A stretch of DNA of 64,000 nucleotides, from NCBI GenBank assembly GCA_902799835.1, contig CADCCF010000002.1:7338-71337 (forward strand). Direction: 5' to 3'. This document shows, one piece after another, positions 1 through 57,791 of the stretch (position 1 is its first letter; each line of letters starts with the position of its first letter). The notes beneath the pieces were generated by a model. The model was not told the DNA's origin, did no database searches, and worked only from the letters and a program-made list of their open reading frames with translations. The DNA comes from an uncultured Pseudomonadota bacterium (lineage in GTDB: Bacteria > Pseudomonadota > Alphaproteobacteria > RF32 > CAG-239). Both the position numbers and the translations under genes were made by a program.

Positions 1-194
1 CGCTTAGTGTTGTTTTCGCCGTTTGGAGCCACTTCTGCCTGAGGAAAGCGTTCCAAAATCATATCGCGCATTCGTTCAGCCGTACGGCGCGATACATTAA
101 ATCTTTGTTGAATATCTTTTAATGACACGCCATCGCGTCCCGATTGCATCCAAATTGCTAAATCCAGTAAATCATGCGCTTTTTCATAAGCCAT
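1..194 (-). CDS. N-terminal 64 aa of a winged-HTH (HTH_11/DeoR-like, the class that fronts WYL-domain regulators) transcriptional regulator. The gene runs off the window start.
   Basis: Minus-strand ATG at 194-192 with SD-like AAGGGGG about 6 nt upstream. Translation is MAYEKAHDLLDLAIWMQSGRDGVSLKDIQQRFNVSRRTAERMRDMILERFPQAEVAPNGENNTK. The pattern LLxLxxxLxxxxxGxSxxDLxxRFxVSxRTxxRDxxxL is typical of this HTH class. It is absent from the ORF track because it has no stop inside the window. Confidence 0.5.
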   Translation of the reverse strand, partial: MAYEKAHDLLDLAIWMQSGRDGVSLKDIQQRFNVSRRTAERMRDMILERFPQAEVAPNGENNTK

Positions 195-312
195 AACAGC
201 CCCCTTTTTTATTTATCATAGCTTTTTATTTTATAAAAAACAAACACTATGTCATTTTTTGACGCATTTGTGTTCTAATTTAATCTCATTATCAATAAAA
301 AAGGAGACTAAA

Positions 313-1284
313 ATGACAATCGTAACGCAAAATTTTAACCCGCCGCTTAAAGTTTGTTTGGGCAACGAAAAGTATTATACTGAAATAGAATCGCGCCAAT
401 GGGAAACAGAAGATAAAGGAGATTTTGTCGCAACAATTCAAAACTTGGGCTATATCGGGAACCGCCAAATTGAAGAGGTTTGGAAACATTACCATAACGA
501 ATATTATATCAGCAACTATGGTTATATTGTAAAAATTGCTAAAGAGGATGCCGAAATTGCCGATATTATAATACCTGACATATTAAAAAATGCTGATGAA
601 AATTCATCCGGTGTGCGTTGGCTCGATTTCTTAGAAGAAGTTAAGTTGTTGTTTCGCCGGAATGCTTATGTGCCTAAAAATCGAGAAAATTCAGGCTGTC
701 AAATTTGTCTTAACATTACCGGAAAAACTGCAGAATATGATATTCATAAGTTGGTAGCACGGTTTTTCTTAAAGAAACCGGAAGATTATGCTAAGCATAG
801 CTATGTTGTCCACCATATTGATAATAATTCGTATAACAACAGTGTGACTAATTTAATTTATCTGAAAGCGGAGACGCATAAGGGTAATCAACATAAAATT
901 TATCATCCGATGTCTCATTCAGGTAAAAAAATTAAAATGAAAAAAATAGTTTTAGACACCGAAACAACGGGATTTTATCCCTTAAAAGGAGATAGAATTG
1001 TTGAAATCGGGGCACTGGAGTTGGATGAAAATGATTGCCCGACCGGACAAACATTTCATACTTACATCAATCCGGAGTGTGAAGTATCGGAAGAAGCCGT
1101 AAAAATACACGGATTAACCAACAATTTTTTAAAAGATTATCCGACTTTCGTTGATATAAAAGACGAATTTTTGCGCTTTATTGAGGGCAAAGCCTTAATT
1201 GCACATAATCTTTCCTTTGATTTAGGATTTTTAGAGCATGAATTAGGTTTCAATTTGCCAAACAAAATGATTGATACCTTGTAA
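313..1284 (+). CDS. Fusion protein: NUMOD4 motif plus HNH_3 (phage/homing-endonuclease-type HNH) N-terminal half, DnaQ-like DEDD 3'-5' exonuclease C-terminal half. The reading frame is cut by an in-frame TAA at 1282-1284.
   Basis: SD AAGGAG 7 nt upstream of ATG 313. NUMOD4-like EEVWKHYHNEYYISNYGYIVKIA. HNH_3-like YDIHKLVARFFLKKPEDYAKHSYVVHHIDNNSYNNSVTNLIYLKAETHKGNQH. Exo I is IVLDTETTGF and Exo II is LIAHNLSFDLGFL. Confidence 0.6.
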   Translation: MTIVTQNFNPPLKVCLGNEKYYTEIESRQWETEDKGDFVATIQNLGYIGNRQIEEVWKHYHNEYYISNYGYIVKIAKEDAEIADIIIPDILKNADENSSGVRWLDFLEEVKLLFRRNAYVPKNRENSGCQICLNITGKTAEYDIHKLVARFFLKKPEDYAKHSYVVHHIDNNSYNNSVTNLIYLKAETHKGNQHKIYHPMSHSGKKIKMKKIVLDTETTGFYPLKGDRIVEIGALELDENDCPTGQTFHTYINPECEVSEEAVKIHGLTNNFLKDYPTFVDIKDEFLRFIEGKALIAHNLSFDLGFLEHELGFNLPNKMIDTL

Positions 1285-1431
1285 ATAGCAAAAAAATCTT
1301 TTCCCGATACTATATGTTCCTTGGATGCACTTTGCAAAATATTCAAAATAAATCCAAAAGCTAAAAATGCTCAAGGCGCATTGCTTGATGTTATGTGCTT
1401 GGCAGAAGTTTATCAAAAATTGGCAAAATAA
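1285..1431 (+). pseudogene. In-frame continuation (48 codons) of the DnaQ-like exonuclease domain after the TAA stop. It contains Exo III-like QGALLDVMCLAEVY with the catalytic His replaced by Gln. The 313..1431 gene is therefore a likely pseudogene or recoded gene.
   Basis: Same frame as 313..1284. The sequence ...MIDTL*IAKKSFPDTICSLDALCKIFKINPKAKNAQGALLDVMCLAEVYQKLAK* matches the canonical C-terminal part of DnaQ-type domains (DTLxLAKKxFP...LDALC...HGALxDAxxxAxVY). Confidence 0.5.
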
Positions 1432-1490
1432 AGTTGCTTTAAGCGGATTTTAGACTATCATAATGGTATTAGCTAAATTAAGGAGCAAAA

Positions 1491-2444
1491 ATGACTGGGA
1501 AATTTGATGTAACCAAATGCTTTGCAGATGATAGCGTAAACAAGCAAAAAGGAAAGTTTTGGGAAAACTTTCATAATCTAGATATAGAAAAATGGAAAGA
1601 AGATAAAAGAAAAATCTACTACGATAATAAATATTGTGATAAAGATGCTCTACCAGATCCCGATGCAACTAGCAAAAGTTTATATGATATACATCAAACA
1701 TTATGGAACCTTCAAAGTGAAAAATTTAACATTTCCGAAGTAATTCCTAACCCTAAAAAAGATTGTGAACTAATAATTAAAGAAAAGGATATTCATTTGG
1801 GTAGTGATTCCATAATGAGTATTTATTGGCATTGGGCTGGAAACAAAGTGCCGTTTAGCACAATGCAAAAACTTATTGAAAAAATAGGTAGTAGTATTCA
1901 AGAAAGAAAGGAATACAACGAACTTAAAAAAGAAATGAAAGAAAAAGGCTGTGATACAGAAAAATATTTACCAAACCAATTAAAAAATTTTATTTATCTA
2001 TATCTAAAAAAAGCCAATACAATTGGTGGATTTGTTGTTTTTCCAAAACATGATAAAAATATTAATGGTCGCAGAGGTATCTCTGCTAAAATACGAGATC
2101 GTTTTGACTTAACTCTTGAGTGTATAAAAAGAGGATATGAAAAAATTTTTGATGAAAACGACCTAAATAACCCTCTAGCTGATGTTCTAAAAGCTGATCA
2201 AGAATTTTTCAAAATGTTTGAATCTTTTGATAATTACATAAATTTCTTTTGCTTAAATTCTTGGATAGAAGATGGTCATGTTTTAAGCTTAATTGATAAC
2301 CAACACTTAGATAATTGGGATTTTAATAACGGTGAGCCTCTTCCGACAAAAGATAATTGGTGGACGTTTTATAAAAATATAATGAGCCGCCTTGATGCTC
2401 GTAATAAAGCTATTCAAGATCTATTTCCGGAGGAAAATAAATGA
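1491..2444 (+). CDS. Hypothetical 317-aa protein with no recognisable family. Second gene of the cassette.
   Basis: Long ORF with SD AAGGAG 7 nt upstream, 60 bp after the preceding gene. Its end overlaps the next start by 4 nt (ATGA). Confidence 0.6.
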   Translation: MTGKFDVTKCFADDSVNKQKGKFWENFHNLDIEKWKEDKRKIYYDNKYCDKDALPDPDATSKSLYDIHQTLWNLQSEKFNISEVIPNPKKDCELIIKEKDIHLGSDSIMSIYWHWAGNKVPFSTMQKLIEKIGSSIQERKEYNELKKEMKEKGCDTEKYLPNQLKNFIYLYLKKANTIGGFVVFPKHDKNINGRRGISAKIRDRFDLTLECIKRGYEKIFDENDLNNPLADVLKADQEFFKMFESFDNYINFFCLNSWIEDGHVLSLIDNQHLDNWDFNNGEPLPTKDNWWTFYKNIMSRLDARNKAIQDLFPEENK

Positions 2445-2935
2445 AATTTATAAAAATACTCGGCAAAAGCCTCTGGTTTGTAATAAAGCTCGCCTTTAAG
2501 ATTATCAAATTGCCTTTTGTTATTTTGATTTTCTTAGGTGGCGCCTCAAGCGGTGCAACTAGTGATGAAGCAACAATCAGCGATTATAATACCGGCAGAA
2601 CTTTATATAAAATAAAAGACGATCGTGTTGACGAATATGATACCGGGCGGACATTGTATAAAATTAATGGTAATTACTTTGAAGATGACTATAACGGTCG
2701 AACCATATATAAGCTCAATAATGATTATATTGAAGAGTATTCCAACGGTCGTAGTTTGTATAAAATAAAGGACAACTATATAGAAGAATATAGCACAGGA
2801 AACACATTGTACAGGATAAGAGATAATTACATTGAAGATTATAGCACCGGCAGAACCTTGTATAAAGTCGATGGCAAAATAACCGCATGGGTTATCATAA
2901 CCATTCTCATTTACGAAGGTATTTTGGAAAGATAA
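2441..2935 (+). CDS. Small membrane-anchored protein made of six tandem ~17-aa repeats with consensus Y-S/D-T-G-R-T-L-Y-K-I-x-D-N-Y-I-E-E.
   Basis: SD GGAGGA upstream and a 4-nt overlap with the upstream stop. N-terminal hydrophobic helix LPFVILIFLGG. A second hydrophobic stretch AWVIITILIY lies at the C-terminus. Confidence 0.6.
   Translation: MKFIKILGKSLWFVIKLAFKIIKLPFVILIFLGGASSGATSDEATISDYNTGRTLYKIKDDRVDEYDTGRTLYKINGNYFEDDYNGRTIYKLNNDYIEEYSNGRSLYKIKDNYIEEYSTGNTLYRIRDNYIEDYSTGRTLYKVDGKITAWVIITILIYEGILER
2581..2880 (+). repeat. Imperfect tandem ~51-bp coding repeats (x6) inside CDS 2441..2935.
   Basis: Repeated TGRTLYKI / NGRTIYKL / NGRSLYKI / TGNTLYRI / TGRTLYKV peptide units are visible in translation and as DNA periodicity. 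Confidence 0.55.
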
Positions 2936-3015
2936 TTTTAAAATTATTGCTTTTATTAATCAAGCAGATCAAGTCTAAATCAAGAATATGATACCGCCAA
3001 GCATCTAAAAATAGT

Positions 3016-3044
3016 TTGACTTGCAATCGAGATTATGTTATAAA
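3016..3044 (+). promoter_or_regulatory. Sigma70-like promoter TTGACT-17-TATAAA for the thrS-like gene, followed by a ~190-nt leader.
   Basis: TTGACT at 3016-3021, a 17-nt spacer and TATAAA at 3039-3044. Confidence 0.45.
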
Positions 3045-3092
3045 GACAATATGTTAAACGAAAGAGACATTTTTTTTCAATCATTTCAATTA

Positions 3093-3122
3093 CAGAACTT
3101 GCATGAAAGTTCTGCTTTTTGT
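3093..3122 (+). terminator. Terminator-like hairpin plus U-run inside the thrS-like leader. It is a possible attenuator. A second GC hairpin lies at 3149-3164.
   Basis: cagaactt-gcatga-aagttctg followed by cttttt. The second hairpin is caccgc-ttag-gcggtg. Confidence 0.35.
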
Positions 3123-3237
3123 GTTTCTTTAACCTTTACCGTAACCACCACCGCTTAGGCGGTGATATTTCTTTATTTCTGGATTTATATCCATACAAGT
3201 AATTTAAAGTTTAACAATTTTCGTAAAGGTTAGAAAA

Positions 3238-4512
3238 ATGAATAATAATATAGATGAAAAACAAAATATTTCCGAAAACGACCATCGTCGTATCGGTAAG
3301 GAACTGGACTTATTTTCTTTTAGTGATTATGTAGGATCCGGATTGGCTTTGTGGCATCCCAATGGCGCAATCATTAGAGGCGAAATAGAATCTTTTTGGA
3401 AAAAAGAACATCAAAAAGCCGGCTATAAATATGTCTATTCTCCGGTTGTCGGATTAAAACAGCTATGGGAAAAATCCGGTCATTTGGATCATTTTGCCGA
3501 CTGTATGTATCCGCCGATGGATATGTCCTTAAAGGATAAAGAAGAACAGGGGGCTTATTATGTTAAGCCGATGAGCTGTCCTTTTCATGTGGCAATTTAT
3601 AATGCTTCCGTACATTCATATAAAGAACTTCCGATTAAATATTGTGAACTTGGAAATGTTTATCGTTATGAAGCATCTGGCGGTCTGCAAGGACTATTGC
3701 GCGTTCGTTGCATTACGCAAGATGATGCGCATATTATCTGTCGTCAAGATCAGTTTATGGAAGAGCTTTCAAAGGTTTTGGACTTTGGTTTTGCTTTCAA
3801 TAAAGTCTTTGGCTATGATAAGTTTAAAGTATACTTTTCCATTCGTGATTTAAAAAACAAAAAGGATAAATATATTGAAAACGAGCCCGTTTGGCAAATG
3901 GCCGAGCAAGCGATAGAACAAGTCTTAAAAGACAAAAAACTTCCATATGATATAGATGTCGGAGGAGCAAAATTTTACGGACCGGCCATTGATGTCAAAG
4001 CCGTAGATGAAAATGGCAAGGAATGGCAATGTATGACGATTCAACTGGATATGAATTTGCCGGAAAAATGGGGAATGTCTTATATCGGTGAAGATGGTCA
4101 AAAGCACGTGCCGATTATGTTGCACCGCGCCATTTTAGGATCATTGGAGCGTTTTATCGGCGTATATTTGGAAAGATGCGAAGGTAAATTGCCGGTTTGG
4201 TTGTCACCGATTCAGGTCAAAATTTTACCGGTATCGGACAGGCACCAAGAACAAGCTCTGCAAATTCAAGAACAGCTACTGGCACAAGATATACGTGCTG
4301 AAGCTGATTTATCCAGCAATACGATTTCGTATCAAATCAGAAATGCGGTTAAAAAGAAAATTCCTTATGTTATTGTGATAGGAGACAAAGAAATTGAAAA
4401 TAATCATGTTTCTGTCAGATTGCGTAATGGTGAACAATTAGACGACATTCCGCTTGCTGATTTTATGAAACGTGTATCCGCAAAAATAAAAAACAAAAGT
4501 ATAGATTTGTAA
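3238..4512 (+). CDS. thrS: Threonyl-tRNA synthetase catalytic core plus anticodon-binding domain only (424 aa). The N-terminal TGS and editing domains are absent.
   Basis: Aligns with E. coli ThrRS from about residue 236 (DHRRIGKELDLF vs DHRKIGKQLDLY) through the C-terminus. Class II motifs are present: PMSCPFH, YRYEASGGLQGLLRVRCITQDDAHI and HRAILGSLERFIGVYLE. An in-frame upstream stop prevents N-terminal extension. Confidence 0.85.
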   Translation: MNNNIDEKQNISENDHRRIGKELDLFSFSDYVGSGLALWHPNGAIIRGEIESFWKKEHQKAGYKYVYSPVVGLKQLWEKSGHLDHFADCMYPPMDMSLKDKEEQGAYYVKPMSCPFHVAIYNASVHSYKELPIKYCELGNVYRYEASGGLQGLLRVRCITQDDAHIICRQDQFMEELSKVLDFGFAFNKVFGYDKFKVYFSIRDLKNKKDKYIENEPVWQMAEQAIEQVLKDKKLPYDIDVGGAKFYGPAIDVKAVDENGKEWQCMTIQLDMNLPEKWGMSYIGEDGQKHVPIMLHRAILGSLERFIGVYLERCEGKLPVWLSPIQVKILPVSDRHQEQALQIQEQLLAQDIRAEADLSSNTISYQIRNAVKKKIPYVIVIGDKEIENNHVSVRLRNGEQLDDIPLADFMKRVSAKIKNKSIDL

Positions 4513-4520
4513 AAGCAAAA

Positions 4521-4545
4521 ATCCTCCACAGAAGTGGGGGATTTT
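4521..4545 (+). terminator. Hairpin after thrS-like with a weak T-run.
   Basis: atcctccac-agaa-gtgggggat, then ttt. Confidence 0.35.
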
Positions 4546-4659
4546 ATGTATCATCATGCTGCTGGAATGTTCTTTCTTGACAAGGTTGTGTTTTTATATA
4601 GACTAAGCTTGTTAAATTATAATTATATCCAACAATTATTAATAAAAAATATTATTTCT

Positions 4660-5097
4660 ATGAAAAAATCTAGTAATCATTCCAAATTTGGTGATGAATT
4701 TGATGTTCTATGTATTGTTGATGGCAAAAAAGTTCGCTTGCCGTTTTCTAAAAGAAACCAGGGCGAGCCGATTGGTATCTTTCCATTTAACGGACCGGAA
4801 TATATTGAGCTTGAAGAGGTAGAAAATAAAAAGCACACTGACAAAGATGTTGATGAATCACGCCTTTTAGATGAACGCTTTTGTTGTGGCAAGGTTTCCA
4901 TAGTTGCTGACCGGCTAAACTCCTGCTTAAAAGAGATGGGAAAACCTGTACTGGAAAGCACATATCTTGCAGACAGCTCTTATATGAGGGGTGCGGGATG
5001 GATAATCCGCTTTGATGGTTCAAGTGATTATTACGGCGGCAACATTCCGGCAAAACTGCGCTATATGGGGTATTTCCATGAAGCTTGCCGAAAGTGA
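4660..5097 (+). CDS. Hypothetical protein. The start is uncertain; the ORF is open from 4534.
   Basis: ORF 4534..5097. Upstream ATGs sit inside the terminator hairpin, so the internal ATG at 4660 (MKKSSNHSKF...) is favoured. A clean terminator follows. Confidence 0.4.
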   Translation: MKKSSNHSKFGDEFDVLCIVDGKKVRLPFSKRNQGEPIGIFPFNGPEYIELEEVENKKHTDKDVDESRLLDERFCCGKVSIVADRLNSCLKEMGKPVLESTYLADSSYMRGAGWIIRFDGSSDYYGGNIPAKLRYMGYFHEACRK

Positions 5098-5124
5098 AGC
5101 AGTCAAGACAAGAACATTGCAAAA

Positions 5125-5160
5125 ATTCTCCATAGCGAAACACTATGGAGAATTTTTTGT
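5125..5160 (+). terminator. Rho-independent terminator.
   Basis: attctccatag-cgaaacac-tatggagaat followed by TTTTTTG. Confidence 0.6.
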
Positions 5161-5441
5161 TATAAAAAATCGACGAAAGTATCCGTTTCCTAGTTGTATC
5201 TATATTGGTCGTGCACACTAGGGATAAATCCGAAAATTGATACCATTTTTTGATTGTTTCATTTTCATCTCTAAAATAGTGTGGACGCGTTTTTAGGTTC
5301 GATTACAAAAAAATAGTCTGTTATAAGGCTTTGAAGACAGTTTTATAATTTTACAGCTTAGCATACGGATAAATTAGGAATGAACACTTTATCGAATGCT
5401 TTCTCTTGCGAGTCCATATATTGCGAACCGGTACAAATTAT

Positions 5442-5470
5442 TTGACATATATACAGAATCAGACTATAAT
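5442..5470 (+). promoter_or_regulatory. Perfect-consensus sigma70 promoter TTGACA-17-TATAAT.
   Basis: TTGACA at 5442-5447, a 17-nt spacer and TATAAT at 5465-5470. It lies 35 nt upstream of SD GGAGGAG and ATG 5506. Confidence 0.6.
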
Positions 5471-5505
5471 AAACTCATATTTGTACAATCTATGGAGGAG
5501 AAAAT

Positions 5506-6411
5506 ATGGTTAATATTATTGCCGCCGCCGTTGCCGCCGCTGTTAAGGAACGTCGTATAAGAGAGGAAGAACAAAGGCGATATAGAGAGGCTTTAAGAAT
5601 AGAAGAAGAAAGACGTCGTGAAGAAGAAAGACGTCGTGAAGAAGAAAGACGTCGTGAAGAAGAAAGACGTCGTGAAGAAGAGATTATTGATAAACAAAAG
5701 CGAAGGGCAGAAAATATAGCACGCAACCATCACAGGATATCAGATACGAATAACATCGGTGTAACAGATACGTCAATAACTTTTTTGGAAAAATATTACC
5801 ATCAGAAAGACGAATTATTAAGTGCCATAGTTTCTTCGGACGGCTATGAAAGTAAATGCGCCGACGGTTCGTCCATATTTTTTGGCAAAAATTACTACGT
5901 ACATAAGCTTACAAATGGAGTGCAGAGAATTTATGAAGACCGTGGAAGTTTGGTAAGACTTTGTCGAGAAGATATGCCGGATGGCCGGTCAAGAGTTTAC
6001 GGTGCTAAAGATGAGCATGGTACGCAGTTCACGGATGAAGATTGTTTCTTGCTGTATGAGTGTGATGCGAGCGGAAATTATAAACGCTATGGTGAAAAAG
6101 GCAAATACGGAAAATGGACGAGAACGGACGAAGTTGTGGAAGATGGTAAAATTAATACTTCTGAAATTCTGAATGATAATCAAATTTTTGCATATGAAGA
6201 ACTGAAAAAAGCCATTGAACGCGACGAAGTCGGATTGGATATGTTGAAAATTAAAAAAGAAATTTTACGTAAGAAACTTGGAGGTAAGACAGGTCAAACT
6301 GCAGATTCAAGAACAGGCGAAAAAACAGAAGAACATAAACAAACGGCAAAGACACATATTGATATTACCAAAGTTGTAATGAAAGTAGGGCGAGGACAGA
6401 ACATAAAGTAA
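5506..6411 (+). CDS. Hypothetical 301-aa protein with an N-terminal Ala-rich segment, an (EERRRE)x4 charged repeat and an uncharacterised C-terminal domain.
   Basis: Strong promoter and SD. The ORF ends before a long palindromic terminator. Confidence 0.6.
   Translation: MVNIIAAAVAAAVKERRIREEEQRRYREALRIEEERRREEERRREEERRREEERRREEEIIDKQKRRAENIARNHHRISDTNNIGVTDTSITFLEKYYHQKDELLSAIVSSDGYESKCADGSSIFFGKNYYVHKLTNGVQRIYEDRGSLVRLCREDMPDGRSRVYGAKDEHGTQFTDEDCFLLYECDASGNYKRYGEKGKYGKWTRTDEVVEDGKINTSEILNDNQIFAYEELKKAIERDEVGLDMLKIKKEILRKKLGGKTGQTADSRTGEKTEEHKQTAKTHIDITKVVMKVGRGQNIK
5605..5676 (+). repeat. Four perfect tandem copies of an 18-bp unit gaagaaagacgtcgtgaa (EERRRE) inside CDS 5506..6411.
   Basis: Exact repeats read directly at 5605-5622, 5623-5640, 5641-5658 and 5659-5676. 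Confidence 0.9.
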
Positions 6412-6704
6412 ATCGTCTGACAAATAGTCTTGGTAATTGAATGTTTCCGTAATATGTCCGTATTCAAATACAGAGCAATCAATCTGTTCAAATTTGTCTG
6501 GGGCTAATTCAACAATAAGCCATATAACGGCTCACAATAAAATATTACAGAGCAGAAAGCACCTGAGATATTTTAATGTTGTATATTTTTTCTTTTGTGT
6601 TTCACAACCAGAGGTCAACCCCACCTTATTGGATTTGAACTGGCGACAGCAATCTTGTCAAACACGCTTTCCTCCCGTGTTCTAATCCATTCACTTCGTT
6701 ATTT

Positions 6705-6745
6705 AAAACAGAAAAGGCGGTGATAAACACCGCTTTTTCTGTTTT
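6705..6745. terminator. Long near-perfect palindrome that acts as a bidirectional intrinsic terminator.
   Basis: aaaacagaaaaggcggtg-ataaa-caccgctttttctgtttt. Confidence 0.6.
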
Positions 6746-6747
6746 AA

Positions 6748-6790
6748 TGGTCGGGTTGAAGAGGACTACTTCGTTCACTGCGCTCATCAG
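6748..6790 (-). other. Degenerate partial copy of the 3' half of tRNA-Pro. It is a possible att-site remnant or tRNA pseudogene fragment.
   Basis: tggtcgggttgaagaggact...acttcgttcac...gcgctcatcag aligns with the tRNA-Pro segments tggtcgggacgagaggatt...acttcttgcac...gcgctctaccag. It has an internal deletion and lies 120 bp downstream of the intact tRNA in the same orientation. Confidence 0.4.
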
Positions 6791-6876
6791 CTAAAGCTGA
6801 CCGCCGCGCTTTCGCTCGGCTTTCGCTTGTAGTCGAACCTCCTTTTTCGGAGCTTCAAATCCTGATTCCAAAACCA

Positions 6877-6911
6877 ACAAAAAAACCACCCATAAAGGGT
6901 GGCTTTTTATT
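6877..6911. terminator. Bidirectional terminator hairpin directly 3' of tRNA-Pro.
   Basis: aaaaaaa ccaccc-ataa-agggtgg ctttttatt. Confidence 0.55.
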
Positions 6912-6987
6912 GGTCGGGACGAGAGGATTCGAACCTCCGACTTCTTGCACCCCATGCAAGCGCTCTACCAGACTGAACTACGTCCCG
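6911..6987 (-). tRNA. tRNA-Pro, anticodon GGG.
   Basis: Minus-strand sequence CGGGACG TA GTTC AGTCTGGTA GAGC G CTTGC ATGGGGT GCAAG AAGTC GGAGG TTCGAAT CCTCT CGTCCCG A CCA. It has a C1:G72 pair, A73, G37 and an encoded CCA. Confidence 0.85.
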
Positions 6988-7063
6988 AAAACTCTGTTAT
7001 ATCTAACACAATATTTTTATTATGCAACAAATTTTTGCCGAAACATTTATAATAATAAAAAAA

Positions 7064-7090
7064 GCGGTCTTATGCTGACCGCTTAAAACG
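7064..7090 (-). terminator. Terminator for the BOF-family gene.
   Basis: agcggtc-ttatgct-gaccgct, with a T-run on the minus strand. Confidence 0.5.
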
Positions 7091-7110
7091 AATCCATATT
7101 CGATTCTGTT

Positions 7111-7479
7111 TTATTTTTTCATAACCGACTTAGCATCAATTTCGGTTCCGTTTTTATCCTTGTCAACTTCACCCAAAATTATAACTTCATCAGTCTCGGT
7201 GATAGTGTTTCCACCCCATGCTTCCGATTCGATTTCGACAATTACAGTGCCGGTCGAATCCGCCAATTGATATTTATCACCTTTAACTTGATTGGTAATT
7301 TTTCCTGATACTTTAACCGGAGTGTCATCTTCCATCACCAAAACTTCAGCAATAGTGTTAACCGGCATGGCAGTATTTTGATAGCCGCCCCCCTTGTGGT
7401 GCTTTCCGGCATTGGCAACTGACAAACAGGCGAATCCGGCAATCAGTGTTAAGCTCATGATATACAATATTTTTCTCAT
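7111..7479 (-). CDS. Periplasmic YgiW/YdeI (BOF, bacterial OB-fold) family protein.
   Basis: Signal peptide followed by the characteristic KVSGKITNQV...KYQLADSTGTVIVEIE OB-fold pattern. Confidence 0.65.
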   Translation of the reverse strand: MRKILYIMSLTLIAGFACLSVANAGKHHKGGGYQNTAMPVNTIAEVLVMEDDTPVKVSGKITNQVKGDKYQLADSTGTVIVEIESEAWGGNTITETDEVIILGEVDKDKNGTEIDAKSVMKK

Positions 7480-7824
7480 AAATTTTCTCCTGCTGAAAAA
7501 TTTTTACGCAGTACATATATAAAGTCACAAGAATTTTTAAATAGAAATAAAGAATTATTTTTAACGAGTCGTTTTAACCTTTGCCGAATTAGTGATAAAA
7601 GGTTTAATTTTTTGCATAAATTGCCTAAAAAAATGGCGGATTTCTGCGCTGTACAGGTTATTAATATTTTTATCCTCATGGCAAAAAAAATTTTTTATGA
7701 CACGATTTTAAATAGATAGGTGCGGAATCCAAATTATCAACAAAATTTTATTCTTAACAGCTATTGAGAGCTTTATTTTTATCTGTAAAAATCATCCTCA
7801 ACAGTTTCGCAAAAAAAATTGTGC

Positions 7825-7873
7825 ATACTATATCTAGTATATTTACTTTTTGTTAAGACTATATATTGTATGT
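7825..7873 (+). promoter_or_regulatory. Two NrdR-box-like 16-bp palindromes with centres 32 bp apart, upstream of nrdD.
   Basis: ATACTATATCTAGTAT at 7825-7840 and ACTATATATTGTATGT around 7858-7873. They are compared with the NrdR-box consensus (acaCwAtATaTwGtgt) from established knowledge. Confidence 0.4.
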
Positions 7874-7933
7874 TATCAGCAACAGAGCAAAAAATGGTTT
7901 AATCTTTTAAGCAGTGAAAGAAAGACAATAGAA

Positions 7934-9994
7934 ATGACTAAAGCAACCGCAAAAAATTCATCTGCCGCCGAAGAAAATATCGGCATCGCTCAAATTTCAA
8001 AACGCGATGGTACATTGGCTCCTTTCGATTCAGAGAGAATCTTTAATGCTATTAACAAAGCAGGTTCTGCCACCAAAGAATTTGATGAGGATGAAAGCCG
8101 TCTGTTAACCGCTCAGGTTTTGAAGGTTTTGAAACATAAGTTCTCTGCAAAAAATTTGCCTTCAATCGAACAAATTCAAGATATTGTTGAGCAGGTTTTG
8201 ATTTCGGCTAACTATTTTAACACCGCCAAGGCCTACATTTTGTATCGTGACCAACGCACCCGCGTTCGCCAAGACAACAAAGTTATGGTTGATGTTGAGA
8301 GTTCGGTTAATGAATATTTGGAAAAGTTGGATTGGCGTATTAATGAAAATGCCAACCAAGGTTATTCCAATGGTGGATTGATTTTGAATGTTGCCGGTAA
8401 GGTAACTGCCAATTATTGGTTGAGCCATGTTTATCCGGCAGCTATCGGTGAGGCTCACCGCAATGGTGATTTTCATATCCATGATTTGAGCATGTTGGCA
8501 GCTTATTGTGCCGGTTGGTCATTAAAGAATCTTCTTCATGAAGGTTTTAACGGAGTTCCCGGCAAAGCTGAGGCTGGACCGGCCAAACACTTAAGTGCCG
8601 CAGTTGGTCAGATGGTTAACTTTATGGGTACTTTGCAAAATGAGTGGGCGGGAGCTCAGGCTTTTTCATCAGTTGATACCTATCTTGCTCCTTATGTTCG
8701 CAAAGATAAATTGTCATATAAACAAGTATATCAGAGCATGCAGGAATTGATTTATAACTTAAACGTTCCTTCTCGTTGGGGTTCACAAACACCTTTCACT
8801 AACTTCACTTTCGATTGGGTTTGTCCGGAAGATTTGCGTGATAAACATCCTTTGATTGCTGGTGTTGAACAAGACTTCACCTATGGCGATTTAAAAGACG
8901 AGATGCACATGATTAACAAAGCCTACATCGAAGTTATGATGAAAGGCGATACCAAAGGTCGTCCGTTTACCTTCCCGATTCCCACCTATAATATGACACC
9001 TGATTTTCCGTGGGAAGACGAAAACACTGAATTGTTGTTCGAAATGACCGCCAAATACGGCTTGCCTTATTTCCAGAACTTTATCAATTCTGTATTAAAA
9101 CCCGGTCAAATTCGTTCAATGTGTTGCCGTCTGCAATTAGACTTGCGCGAATTGTTGGCTCGCGGCAACGGCTTGTTTGGCTCGGCTGAACAAACCGGTT
9201 CAATTGGTGTTGTTACCATCAACTGCGCTCGTTTGGGCTATGTTTACAAAGGCAACGAAGCCGGTCTTTATGCTCGTTTGGATGAATTGATGGATATGGC
9301 CAAGGTATCCTTGGAAATCAAACGTAAACTCATTCAGCGCCTGATTGACCAAGGATTATTCCCTTATACCAAACGTTATTTGGGAACTTTACGCAACCAC
9401 TTCTCAACCATTGGTGTTAATGGCATCAACGAGATGATTAGAAACTTCACCAATGATGAACACGAAATTGCCGATGAATGGGGACAAGCTTTTGCTGTTA
9501 AATTCTTGGATTATATTCGCGATCGTTTGGTCAAAATTCAAGAAGAAACCGGTCATATGTATAACCTCGAAGCCACTCCGGCTGAGGGTGCAACAACTCG
9601 TTTTGCCCGTGAAGATAAAAAACGTTTTGCTGACATTATCCAAGCCGGTCCGAAAGAGAATCCTTTTTATACCAATTCATCACAGTTGCCGGTTGGCTAC
9701 ACCGATGATCCGTTTGAAGCTTTGGAATTACAATCAACTCTTCAAACCAAGTACACCGGAGGAACCGTGTTGCACCTTTACATGGGACAGCGTATTTCCT
9801 CAGCCAAAGTTTGTCGCGACATTGTAAAACGTGTTTTGACAAACTACCGGTTGCCTTATGTTACCATCACCCCGACTTTTTCCATTTGCCCAAAACATGG
9901 ATATATCTCGGGAGAACATAAATACTGCCCGATTTGTGATGAAGAAAAGAAGGCAGCAAAAAGAGCCGCAGCATCAAGAAAAGATGTTGCTTAA
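7934..9994 (+). CDS. nrdD: Anaerobic ribonucleoside-triphosphate reductase large (catalytic) polypeptide with an N-terminal ATP-cone. The glycyl-radical motif is not in this ORF.
   Basis: ATP-cone ISKRDGTLAPFDSERIFNAINKAG and a class III RNR body. It ends in a Cys/His cluster CPKHGYISGEHKYCPIC. The start was set at the internal ATG 7934 of track ORF 7850. Confidence 0.85.
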   Translation: MTKATAKNSSAAEENIGIAQISKRDGTLAPFDSERIFNAINKAGSATKEFDEDESRLLTAQVLKVLKHKFSAKNLPSIEQIQDIVEQVLISANYFNTAKAYILYRDQRTRVRQDNKVMVDVESSVNEYLEKLDWRINENANQGYSNGGLILNVAGKVTANYWLSHVYPAAIGEAHRNGDFHIHDLSMLAAYCAGWSLKNLLHEGFNGVPGKAEAGPAKHLSAAVGQMVNFMGTLQNEWAGAQAFSSVDTYLAPYVRKDKLSYKQVYQSMQELIYNLNVPSRWGSQTPFTNFTFDWVCPEDLRDKHPLIAGVEQDFTYGDLKDEMHMINKAYIEVMMKGDTKGRPFTFPIPTYNMTPDFPWEDENTELLFEMTAKYGLPYFQNFINSVLKPGQIRSMCCRLQLDLRELLARGNGLFGSAEQTGSIGVVTINCARLGYVYKGNEAGLYARLDELMDMAKVSLEIKRKLIQRLIDQGLFPYTKRYLGTLRNHFSTIGVNGINEMIRNFTNDEHEIADEWGQAFAVKFLDYIRDRLVKIQEETGHMYNLEATPAEGATTRFAREDKKRFADIIQAGPKENPFYTNSSQLPVGYTDDPFEALELQSTLQTKYTGGTVLHLYMGQRISSAKVCRDIVKRVLTNYRLPYVTITPTFSICPKHGYISGEHKYCPICDEEKKAAKRAAASRKDVA

Positions 9995-11133: not shown

Positions 11134-11808
11134 ATGATTACAAATGAAGATGCTGCTAGATTATTTGAACAACCGACCATCGAAGCCATCCCTAGTGATA
11201 TGAAACGTATTATAATTCCGGCTTACGGATTTGCTGGAGCTAAAGATGCAAAGAGGCAAGAATGGGGTGCTGATGGTCCGTTTATGGAAGATGTTAAAGG
11301 TCTTGTTTTCAAGAATCCTAAGGATGATGCTGATCAAGTATTAAAACAAGGCGATGGAGTTTTGATTTGTTATGATGCCCCTGGTCGCAAAGAGAAAATT
11401 GAACAATATTTGAAAGATAATCCGTCCACCTTTATGACCGCAGGACAAGTGCAAAGGTTTATTGATTATTTGACTACAAATGTTGTTAATGAAGGTGGAA
11501 AAGCTGATTTATGGGATTCAGACTTAGCTTTTGCTTCTGGATTAAAAGATGCACCAGCGAAAGAAGAAATGAAACCGGGAATGGTTTTCACCGGAGTTAA
11601 GAAAAAGGAAGCTGTTCAAGCTGTGTTTGTTAAAGAGGGAGTACAGTTTGAAGGAGCTGAGGGTAAACCCCAAACTGCTGGTAAGGATGGAGCATATATA
11701 ATTAAAGATAGTGCCGGATTAAGAATGATTCAAAAAGCCGAGTTTGCCAAGGCTTATCAAATTACCAAGATACCTCCGGTTCAATCAAATGACAAAGTCA
11801 GAGGTTAA
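11134..11808 (+). CDS. Hypothetical soluble protein (224 aa).
   Basis: SD AAGGAG upstream. A terminator follows. Confidence 0.55.
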   Translation: MITNEDAARLFEQPTIEAIPSDMKRIIIPAYGFAGAKDAKRQEWGADGPFMEDVKGLVFKNPKDDADQVLKQGDGVLICYDAPGRKEKIEQYLKDNPSTFMTAGQVQRFIDYLTTNVVNEGGKADLWDSDLAFASGLKDAPAKEEMKPGMVFTGVKKKEAVQAVFVKEGVQFEGAEGKPQTAGKDGAYIIKDSAGLRMIQKAEFAKAYQITKIPPVQSNDKVRG

Positions 11809-57119: not shown

Positions 57120-57791
57120 TTATTTCAAATTACAAAAATCTAAAATTGCCGGTTTTAGCTCAGCATAAATTTTTGCCATATCTTCTTCATTTTCGGCATG
57201 CCATGTTTCAACCGTAATCAGCGGAATTTTTCTTTCAATTCCCGCCCAAGTGCCAAACGAACCGTTGGTCGGATAGCCGATTTCATCAACCAAACGATAA
57301 CCGCAAATTTGGCTGAATTTTAAGGCCAGTTCTTTCGCCGGTCCATCATAATCAATCAGGTGCAAATCCGAGTGGATGGAGAGTATGCGCTTAAAGTTGT
57401 AACCATTAATCAGATCCATCATGATTTGCGTTTCAATCTCGGATGCCGGTTGACCGGAGGAAATTTCTTTGACATGCGGATTGACGCAGGTTGAGCTGAA
57501 ATTTTCGGTTGGATAATTGCGATTGAGATCAACCCCATGTCCGTTCGCCCGAGTGAAAAGCTTTTTCCCGCTGGGGTTTAGGCAAGGCAAAATATAGATA
57601 TTATAAGGGGATTGCCACTTATTTTGCTCTAATTCCGACAGCAATTGTCGCAAGCAAAATTCCCCCTCCGGCTCATCACCATGAAAACGTGCCACCAACA
57701 AAATATTGTCATCAGATGGATACGATGGATAGCACAATAATTCTATCGGATTACCGAAACTATCAACCCAATCCTTAACTTTAGTCAGCAT
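57120..57791 (-). CDS. M14-family zinc carboxypeptidase-like protein (MpaA / succinylglutamate desuccinylase-aspartoacylase type).
   Basis: HGDEPEG zinc-binding motif and a downstream H. Confidence 0.65.
   Translation of the reverse strand: MLTKVKDWVDSFGNPIELLCYPSYPSDDNILLVARFHGDEPEGEFCLRQLLSELEQNKWQSPYNIYILPCLNPSGKKLFTRANGHGVDLNRNYPTENFSSTCVNPHVKEISSGQPASEIETQIMMDLINGYNFKRILSIHSDLHLIDYDGPAKELALKFSQICGYRLVDEIGYPTNGSFGTWAGIERKIPLITVETWHAENEEDMAKIYAELKPAILDFCNLK

Follow-up and report, generated by a model that had tools for sequence, protein, structure and literature searches.

A DriD-like regulator and a DriD-type box at the divergent promoter of a DUF6994 operon in an uncultured rumen alphaproteobacterium

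Introduction

The closest described relative of the regulator reported here is DriD, an SOS-independent activator of the DNA-damage response in Caulobacter that senses single-stranded DNA (ssDNA) (PMC9186387). Its experimentally defined sites lie at didA (ATACGTCCGTTTCTGGCGCA), driD/CCNA_03891 (ATACGACCGTTTCTGTCGCA), and bapE (TATGTTCTCTTCTGGCGCA) (PMC9186387, PMC13004042). At PdidA, the box ends 1 nucleotide (nt) upstream of the -35 position (PMC9186387), and good -35 elements have been reported as absent from DriD-dependent promoters (PMC9186387, PMC13004042), while in the bidirectional promoter of driD itself, the box activates the divergent, uncharacterized operon and not driD (PMC13004042). 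Here, we describe a locus at the start of a 64,000-nt stretch of DNA from an uncultured rumen alphaproteobacterium (assembly GCA_902799835.1, contig CADCCF010000002.1, positions 7,338 to 71,337 of the forward strand; hereafter, the window), in which a gene for a regulator of this kind diverges from three co-oriented genes. Gene 1 is an HNH-DEDD fusion that is now a pseudogene, gene 2 encodes a DUF6994 protein, and gene 3 encodes a repeat protein with a predicted membrane anchor. We propose, at a probability of roughly 0.55, that they make up a DriD-type unit, in which an ssDNA-sensing regulator with winged helix-turn-helix (wHTH), WYL, and WCX domains is encoded divergently from a three-gene operon and shares with it a promoter that carries a canonical DriD box.

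Two further bodies of work bear on this locus. First, among other WYL regulators, CapW senses ssDNA (PMC11662680), and the activator DdaA has been reported to control DNA-damage and defense genes alike (PMC12392091). Second, for DUF6994, the Pfam authors described a beta-beta-alpha fold that keeps two invariant Asp but has another residue in place of the catalytic His (PMC11701544).

Results

The regulator and the shared promoter

The window holds the first 64 codons of the regulator gene, and the full-length protein of 323 amino acids was read at 7733-8704 of L001, a 549,809-bp rumen metagenome scaffold that holds a longer copy of the window locus. It carries Pfam WYL and WCX domains within an architecture of wHTH, three-helix bundle, WYL, and WCX. 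In a phmmer search against all PDB sequences, its best matches were the Caulobacter DriD entries 8tp8, 9pfq/9pfv/9pga, and 7tzv, at an E value of about 1e-47 across residues 1-314 (that is, full length). The recognition-helix segment RRTAERMRD is identical in the two proteins, and Tyr168 and Tyr192, which contact ssDNA in DriD, are kept (contact list in PMC9186387). Judged by sequence, the architecture and the DNA-reading head are those of DriD, with the ligand pocket conserved only in part. The original prediction, made from the letters of the window, had placed the divergent wHTH regulator in the class that fronts WYL-domain regulators such as BrxR, CapW, and PafBC; the WYL-type assignment stands, now with the full wHTH-WYL-WCX architecture, but its closest solved relative is DriD, and no BrxR, CapW, or PafBC chain was among the PDB matches at E ≤ 1. 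The repressors BrxR and CapW do share the wHTH-WYL-WCX class, and their genes, too, adjoin the genes they control. They differ, however, in that sequence matching, in that the adjacent genes of the window form no known defense system, and in that the box and its geometry here are those of the activator DriD.

The features of the locus are as follows, in window coordinates.

1..194, minus strand: regulator gene, 5' part, first 64 codons (coding 3-194, start codon 192-194), from translation
228..255, minus strand: candidate sigma-70-like promoter of the regulator, -35 ATGACA at 255-250, 16-nt spacer, -10 TAAAAT at 233-228; consensus match only, 10/12
248..266, no strand: DriD box TATGTC-N7-GACGCA, spacer ATTTTTT, within the 118-nt bidirectional intergenic region
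268..295, plus strand: putative operon promoter, weak -35-like TTGTGT at 268-273 and -10-like TATCAA at 290-295, read from sequence
287-292, plus strand: alternative operon -10, CATTAT, read from sequence
313-1431, plus strand: gene 1 (pseudogene), in-frame TAA at 1282-1284, AGGAG-type Shine-Dalgarno upstream
1491-2444, plus strand: gene 2, DUF6994 (PF22507), 317 amino acids, predicted DUF1524/GmrSD-like His-Me-finger nuclease fold, AGGAG-type Shine-Dalgarno
2441-2935, plus strand: gene 3, 164 amino acids, ATGA overlap with gene 2, AGGAG-type Shine-Dalgarno
3093..3164, plus strand: two terminator-like hairpins, both with a trailing T run, in the gap from gene 3 to thrS, from a consensus scan

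The box at 248-266, TATGTCATTTTTTGACGCA, lies in the intergenic region between the regulator gene and gene 1 and has no mismatch to a degenerate consensus, TAYGWY-N7-GNCGCA, that was built solely from the three Caulobacter sites (didA, driD/CCNA_03891, and bapE). That consensus has two exact matches in the 64 kb, the other of which, at 11371, is presumably intragenic; the palindromic form of the box (TRYGWC-N7-GWCRYA, with a spacer of 7 nt) has one exact match, at 248-266. A near-box at 57634 was dismissed, as it lies within a coding gene. The spacer of the window box is T-rich, like the Caulobacter spacers, and the box is identical in the sister genome RUG10873 (L005). Further, the weak -35-like TTGTGT begins 1 nt past the box and the -10-like TATCAA lies 16 nt on, a geometry that appears to match that of PdidA. 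On the opposite strand, the -35 element of the candidate regulator promoter overlaps the left half-site of the box.

Taken feature by feature, the window and the Caulobacter system share the domain architecture, full-length match, and recognition helix of the regulator, a 19-bp box of the type TAYGWC-N7-GNCGCA with a T-rich spacer, and a layout in which the box sits in a divergent promoter facing an uncharacterized operon (PMC13004042). They differ in several ssDNA-contact residues and in cargo, which in Caulobacter is an unknown protein and a TonB-dependent transporter, whereas here it is DEDD/HNH, DUF6994, and a repeat membrane protein. The host differs as well, being here an AT-rich uncultured rumen alphaproteobacterium.

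Downstream of this promoter, the coordinates, the AGGAG-type sites, and the ATGA overlap bear out the predicted tight packing of three co-oriented genes with strong Shine-Dalgarno sequences, the gap between genes 1 and 2 being 59 nt. The overlap suggests that gene 3 is translationally coupled to gene 2. The operon likely ends at the hairpins at 3093-3164, where an Rfam scan found no family. As had been noted, the cassette is also AT-rich: guanine plus cytosine (GC) make up 32.5% of it and 39.3% of the window, so that among 2.6-kb windows it ranks within the lowest 2%.

The three genes of the operon

Gene 2 was first described as having no recognizable family, which was wrong, because Pfam DUF6994 (PF22507) matches it at 140.4 bits against a cut-off of 27 (E 9.6e-41); the homologues of gene 2 carry the same family without exception (115/115). 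No model in PADLOC, NCBIfam, or PHROGs matches it. A confident structure model places gene 2 nearest to the nuclease domains of BrxU/GmrSD, SspE, and DndI, all of them defense nucleases, with which it would share a predicted DUF1524 His-Me-finger nuclease fold. It differs from these in lacking a DUF262/ParB-like NTPase sensor domain, in an identity of 7-11%, and in its active site, where another residue reportedly stands in for the canonical catalytic His and the conserved feature is instead a pair of invariant Asp (DRFD motif). In gene 2, these are D203 and D206, within the invariant motif DRFDLTLEC. The family is patchily distributed, with at least 580 carriers among about 185,000 species genomes, bacterial and archaeal; the carriers include Alphaproteobacteria, Gastranaerophilales, Saccharibacteria, Pelagibacter, SAR86, and actinobacteria. 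It is rare on mobile records (1 of 50,697 phage and 5 of 72,556 plasmid records).

Gene 1 joins an HNH part (codons ~1-205) to a DEDD part (codons ~206-372). The latter carries an RNase_T/DEDD domain (E 1.6e-29) whose nearest NCBIfam model is dnaQ_proteo, at 188.8 bits, below the equivalog cut-off of 222.7. It spans the first 168 of the 231 dnaQ profile positions; the C-terminal third of that profile is the region that binds the polymerase alpha subunit. With alphaproteobacterial DnaQ proteins of 225-229 amino acids, the DEDD half shares 52-55% identity and the Exo I (DTETTG) and Exo II (HNLSFD) motifs, but it lacks the C-terminal third, scores below the cut-off, and has lost the His of Exo III, which reads QGALLD in gene 1 and NGALLD in those stand-alone DEDD relatives whose operon includes DUF6994 (His replaced by Gln or Asn). 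One of these DnaQ proteins, P0153 (227 amino acids), is probably the product of the genome's own, separate dnaQ. Residues ~50-205 match phage HNH families, specifically PHROG 959 (5e-13), PHROG 59 (5e-11), and PADLOC HEase (5e-7). Of the predicted NUMOD4/HNH_3-DnaQ fusion, the DEDD domain and an HNH region therefore remain, but NUMOD4 was not detected in the Pfam search and HNH_3 scored 19.2 bits, below its cut-off of 24.8.

Through the in-frame TAA at 1282-1284, the gene 1 product loses the Exo III motif. The stop differs by a single G-to-T change from the GAA of L005, where gene 1 is intact. L001 and two other assemblies encode a gene 2 protein identical to that of the window, and the TAA is present in all three. 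In the database search, the full-length HNH-DEDD fusion turned up in no more than two near relatives, at 98% and 80% identity; elsewhere, the halves are separate genes. There, the HNH half takes the form of stand-alone proteins of ~207 amino acids carrying PF13392. One of them is a prophage gene, flanked by a Septknot gene and a DnaB-like helicase and near genes for a serine recombinase, a ParB-methylase, a terminase, and a Bro-N protein, and another belongs to a Septknot+HNH pair in an ordinary chromosomal context. Because the fusion is restricted to near relatives and the HNH half is elsewhere stand-alone or in prophage, a mobile HNH gene seems to have been fused to the front of an ancestral, His-less dnaQ paralogue. 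Gene 1 thus appears to be a recent chimera, its HNH part a phage-derived add-on, and it is a recent pseudogene. As a side observation, the small Septknot-domain gene always lies directly upstream of the stand-alone HNH, in prophage and chromosome (L084 5687-6621 and L087 5701-6627), which suggests that Septknot+HNH is a mobile two-gene unit.

Gene 3 was predicted to be a transmembrane-anchored protein of six repeats, and it has indeed a hydrophobic N-terminal helix (Kyte-Doolittle peak 2.2), six repeats of 17 amino acids (51 nt) with the form (D/E)Y-x-x-G-x-x-LY-x-I, and a short hydrophobic C-terminal helix. The repeats are predicted beta-hairpins, giving 12 strands. Possibly, this is a Tubby-like barrel, a fold that in Tubby-like/LURP1 (DUF567) proteins has 12 strands closed around a central C-terminal hydrophobic helix. 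A Foldseek search against the PDB gave no significant match, and no PADLOC model matches the protein. The protein is rare: a word-indexed search found one relative, and an exhaustive HMMER search found 91 at E ≤ 1e-3 (1.84 billion representatives), mostly of 110-200 amino acids and without a Pfam family, a few being WG_beta_rep proteins. DidA is a very small membrane protein, from which gene 3 differs in its 164 amino acids and its beta-repeat domain.

Co-occurrence and boxes in other genomes

For comparison, we assembled 81 non-redundant DUF6994 genome loci (1.22 Mb), made our own open reading frame (ORF) calls, and searched them by phmmer with the window proteins. The related genomes that carry parts of the cassette are of uncultured rumen and gut Alphaproteobacteria, and in these, the DEDD exonuclease turns up again along with DUF6994 and the regulator, with gene 3 joining them in five loci. 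Specifically, the regulator adjoins DUF6994 in 12 of the 81 genome loci and in the metagenome locus L090; directly downstream of DUF6994, gene 3 is found in the window/L001, L004, L005, L006, and L008; and a DEDD exonuclease is encoded in the DUF6994 operon in L001, L005, L008, L010, L011, L090, and L092. Stand-alone DEDD exonucleases are found near DUF6994 in L008, L010, L011, and L015. The complete arrangement of the window, including HNH, was restricted to L001 and L005 among the loci compared. The DEDD-DUF6994 pattern is repeated on independent metagenome contigs. In L090, one strand reads 159-amino-acid gene, RNase_T, 331-amino-acid gene, and DUF6994, and the opposite strand holds a WYL/WCX gene convergent with DUF6994, a 317-amino-acid gene, and a DnaB_C gene, while the metagenome locus L092 reads RNase_T, ankyrin gene, DUF6994. 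The regulator is convergent with the DUF6994 operon in L004, L006, L008, and L090; the window lineage therefore appears to have been rearranged such that the operon now lies on the regulator's bidirectional promoter.

Ankyrin-repeat proteins recur between the DEDD gene and DUF6994 (L010 8444-9895, L011 7806-9356, L090 1831-2793, and L092 3969-4970), and P0131 is a fusion of ankyrin repeats with the DEDD domain. Such repeats are unusual company for a nuclease operon in bacteria.

Exact palindromic boxes were about eight-fold enriched in the comparative set, with 13 in the 81 loci against 1.7 ± 1.1 in first-order Markov shuffles, and at least 10 of the 13 fall between genes, although only 10% of the sequence is intergenic. 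A box lies directly upstream of DUF6994 in L014 and in the Melainabacteria-type loci L023, L033, and L068, and upstream of a DUF6994-containing operon in L001, L005, L004, L007, and L039; the box of L074 was counted in the operon-level test only. Other boxes precede the Macro-domain gene that itself precedes DUF6994 in L023, occupy regulator-adjacent promoters facing a PD-(D/E)XK gene, or, in six loci, stand before a gene of 321-332 amino acids with DnaB_C/AAA_25 and no DnaB N-domain, as follows.

L004 5246-6244, minus strand: DnaB_C/AAA_25 gene, DriD-type box upstream
L008 15741-16706, minus strand: DnaB_C/AAA_25 gene, DriD-type box upstream
L011 14329-15300, minus strand: DnaB_C/AAA_25 gene, DriD-type box upstream
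L012 12743-13708, minus strand: DnaB_C/AAA_25 gene, DriD-type box upstream
L013 13548-14513, minus strand: DnaB_C/AAA_25 gene, DriD-type box upstream
L090 8174-9139, minus strand: DnaB_C/AAA_25 gene, DriD-type box upstream

The same regulator seems to act directly on the gene of this conserved DnaB_C/AAA_25 protein, too. Since boxes stand before other DNA-metabolism genes, and before DUF6994 genes that have no adjacent regulator, the pattern looks like that of a regulon and not of a self-contained cassette.

This bears on a second explanation, which is possible, if doubtful, namely, that the locus is a self-contained and undescribed anti-phage or abortive-infection module. In such a module, a BrxR/CapW-type WYL regulator would silence toxic effectors until infection yields ssDNA, upon which DUF6994, with or without DEDD/HNH, would attack (possibly modified) phage DNA or the membrane protein would kill the cell. 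WYL regulators often control defense islands, and DdaA controls damage and defense genes (PMC9122601, PMC11662680, PMC12392091), but the regulator here resembles DriD and not the solved BrxR or CapW, and the boxes that also precede helicase-like and nuclease genes speak for a regulon. The fold of gene 2, nearest to those of BrxU/GmrSD, SspE, and DndI, the patchy distribution of DUF6994, its near absence from phages, and the AT-richness of the cassette relative to the genome would all suit defense; the locus, however, is syntenic at the thrS position in related species and does not sit in a variable island. In other phyla, the immediate neighbors of DUF6994 include DpnII restriction-modification (R-M) systems (6 loci), Nmad3 (6 loci), type I R subunits, McrB-like N-domains, a mad3/PtuA-like ATPase, and the PADLOC candidates PDC-M72A, PDC-S11, and mad2, yet these defense-like neighbors come largely from one Gastranaerophilales synteny block. 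In L020 (7454-11540), for example, DUF6994 lies between a DpnII R-M system (two methylases and an endonuclease) and Nmad3, and the same DpnII/DUF6994/Nmad3 synteny is found in L017, L019, L022, L024, and L031. PDC-M72A matches four immediate DUF6994 neighbors, which were not identified among ten proteins that were re-scanned.

PADLOC assigned the cassette to no named system, having no model for genes 2 and 3 and matching gene 1 and the regulator at the level of generic domain models only (DEDDh, PDC-S48, which covers the DEDD part only, HEase, and WYL). The original prediction of a defense-like module was to fall if homologues of its genes never co-occurred or if the cassette belonged to a named system; because the genes do co-occur and PADLOC names no system, it was not refuted on these grounds. 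The WYL-type regulator and the co-occurrence were borne out, and the fold of gene 2 and several neighborhoods are defense-like, but the DriD-like character of the regulator and the regulon behavior of the boxes speak against it.

Three further kinds of neighborhood were observed. First, in L028 (6014-10762), a WYL regulator, a mad3/PtuA/AriA-like ABC ATPase of 461 amino acids, and DUF6994 stand together, in a grouping that resembles ATPase-plus-HNH pairs such as Septu. Second, Macro-domain proteins lie near DUF6994 in L023 (3790-5165, with its own DriD-type box), L088 (6001-9198), and L001 (4949-5554), the last being a weak Macro match two genes past the regulator. Third, repair-like partners of DUF6994, which favor a damage regulon, include an EEP nuclease followed by a Macro protein (Selenomonas pSRC2) and an MBL/RMMBL nuclease (L039).

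Chromosomal setting

The cassette is followed by thrS and, farther on, by a tRNA gene.

3238-4512, plus strand: thrS, 424 amino acids, tRNA-synt_2b core and anticodon-binding domain, without N-terminal TGS or editing domains
6911-6987, minus strand: tRNA-Pro(GGG)

It had been proposed that the cassette lies in a block bounded by a tRNA-Pro with an att-like partial duplicate. The tRNA-Pro is present, but the duplicate is a degenerate copy of ~25 nt of its 3' end (TGGTCGGG...), at 6749-6775, 135 nt from the tRNA, and the repeat search found no long direct repeat. This copy may have been left by an old integration event, but it does not delimit the cassette. An Rfam scan over 1-8000 returned the tRNA only, with no transfer-messenger RNA and no T-box. 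In L005, a 426-amino-acid gene, read as the same short thrS, stands beside the same cassette, so that the locus is lineage-stable and not demonstrably a tRNA-bounded island. In L008, a 425-amino-acid gene occupies the thrS position, after a related operon made up of stand-alone DEDD, DUF6994, and gene 3 together with the regulator. A tRNA-bounded island was rejected on the lack of a long direct repeat, the degeneracy of the tRNA copy, and the same setting in L005.

A third explanation, which we regard as improbable, is that the locus is the decaying remnant of a prophage, an integrative and conjugative element, or a homing endonuclease, with no present function, in which an HNH gene homed beside a dnaQ-like gene and the block is being lost. 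Gene 1 is a pseudogene, as this would have it, but its premature stop goes back to one recent change, and three intact full-length fusions were found (L005, P0117, and P0118). Moreover, genes 2 and 3 and the regulator gene show no disruption and have strong Shine-Dalgarno sequences and translational coupling, L005 carries the identical box, and the DEDD-DUF6994-regulator linkage is conserved in several species-level genomes. The stand-alone HNH homologues do occur in prophage (with recombinase, terminase, DnaB-like helicase, and Bro-N genes) and as the Septknot+HNH pair, DUF6994 abuts Mu-like transposase A and B genes in some Gastranaerophilales, and the GC content of the block is low; no integrase, att repeat, or phage structural gene, however, was found in or beside the cassette.

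Separately, an 18-nt tandem repeat encoding (EEERRR)n lies at 5584-5691, inside the ORF at 5506-6411. This ORF has 301 amino acids in the window and 432 on L001, which is ~393 nt longer between the repeat ORF and a BOF-domain gene, so that the assemblies differ in length here.

Discussion

We consider a DriD-type unit the preferred reading of this locus: with a DriD-like regulator and a DriD box in its promoter, the operon is probably switched on by DNA damage or by phage-made ssDNA. By homology with Caulobacter DriD, ssDNA arising from DNA damage, a replicating phage, or a mobile element would bind the WYL domain and free the wHTH domains. The regulator dimer would then bind TATGTC-N7-GACGCA at the -35 position and recruit RNA polymerase, and the operon would be transcribed away from the regulator gene. 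Because the operon encodes DEDD/HNH, a nuclease-fold DUF6994 protein, and a membrane protein, its output would be an activity that processes or degrades DNA, can be induced, and has a membrane partner. Of these elements, the domain identities, the box, the linkage of the genes in several genomes, and the pseudogene were observed, whereas the sensing of ssDNA, activation as opposed to repression, nuclease activity, and the physiological role are inferred. In logic only, this resembles the Caulobacter genes bapE and didA, where a DriD box drives a damage-induced endonuclease (BapE) and a small membrane division inhibitor (DidA) (PMC9186387, PMC13004042). Between possible roles, we give damage-triggered DNA processing or self-destruction a somewhat higher weight than dedicated phage defense, and the two are not exclusive. 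More tentatively still, DUF6994, with or without DEDD and gene 3, may be the effector of an undescribed ssDNA- or damage-triggered nuclease system under DriD-type control, serving either defense or a BapE-like suicide.

Several observations weigh against the DriD-type unit. First, a number of the residues that contact ssDNA in DriD are changed in the regulator (S172Q, R178A, K202E, R204H, and W206F), which leaves ssDNA a putative ligand. Second, the related WYL regulators CapW and BrxR are repressors, and the case for activation is thus made solely by the likeness to DriD and the geometry of the box. Third, the canonical catalytic His is absent from DUF6994 according to the Pfam authors (PMC11701544), the DEDD domains of this clade are without the Exo III His, and either protein could therefore be non-catalytic; gene 1 is, in addition, inactivated in the window genome. 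Fourth, the enrichment of boxes upstream of DUF6994 is weak across all 75 loci tested (Fisher P 0.03 to 0.1), and no box was found ahead of the DEDD-DUF6994 operon in L008, L010, L011, L090, or L092. Given the weak Fisher tests, we claim box control of DUF6994 for a subset of the loci only. A fair statement is that the DUF6994 operon would be a direct target of the box in a subset of loci, the window among them, and that DUF6994 neighborhoods are rich in functional-looking DriD-type boxes.

Nothing at the locus contradicts existing concepts, and one of the three genes is dead in the window genome. If DUF6994 is the effector of an undescribed nuclease system of the kind outlined above, a relative of the GmrSD/SspE nuclease domain would act as a separate protein that lacks the usual sensor domain, with a WYL regulator doing the sensing at the transcriptional level. 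Under the preferred reading, DriD-type regulation, worked out so far in Caulobacter, would extend to uncultured rumen and gut Alphaproteobacteria, and similar boxes also stand before DUF6994 in Melainabacteria-like genomes. DUF6994, so far a matter of structural prediction only, would be tied to the nuclease domain found in restriction enzymes of the type IV and phosphorothioate-sensing kinds and would gain a testable context, namely, induction by damage or ssDNA, a His-less DnaQ paralogue, and a membrane partner. If DUF6994 is indeed a damage- or infection-triggered nuclease, it would represent a new class of effector at the border between the response to DNA damage and defense against phages; otherwise, the locus would be a clean example of a WYL regulon rewired by rearrangement and by the fusion of a homing endonuclease.

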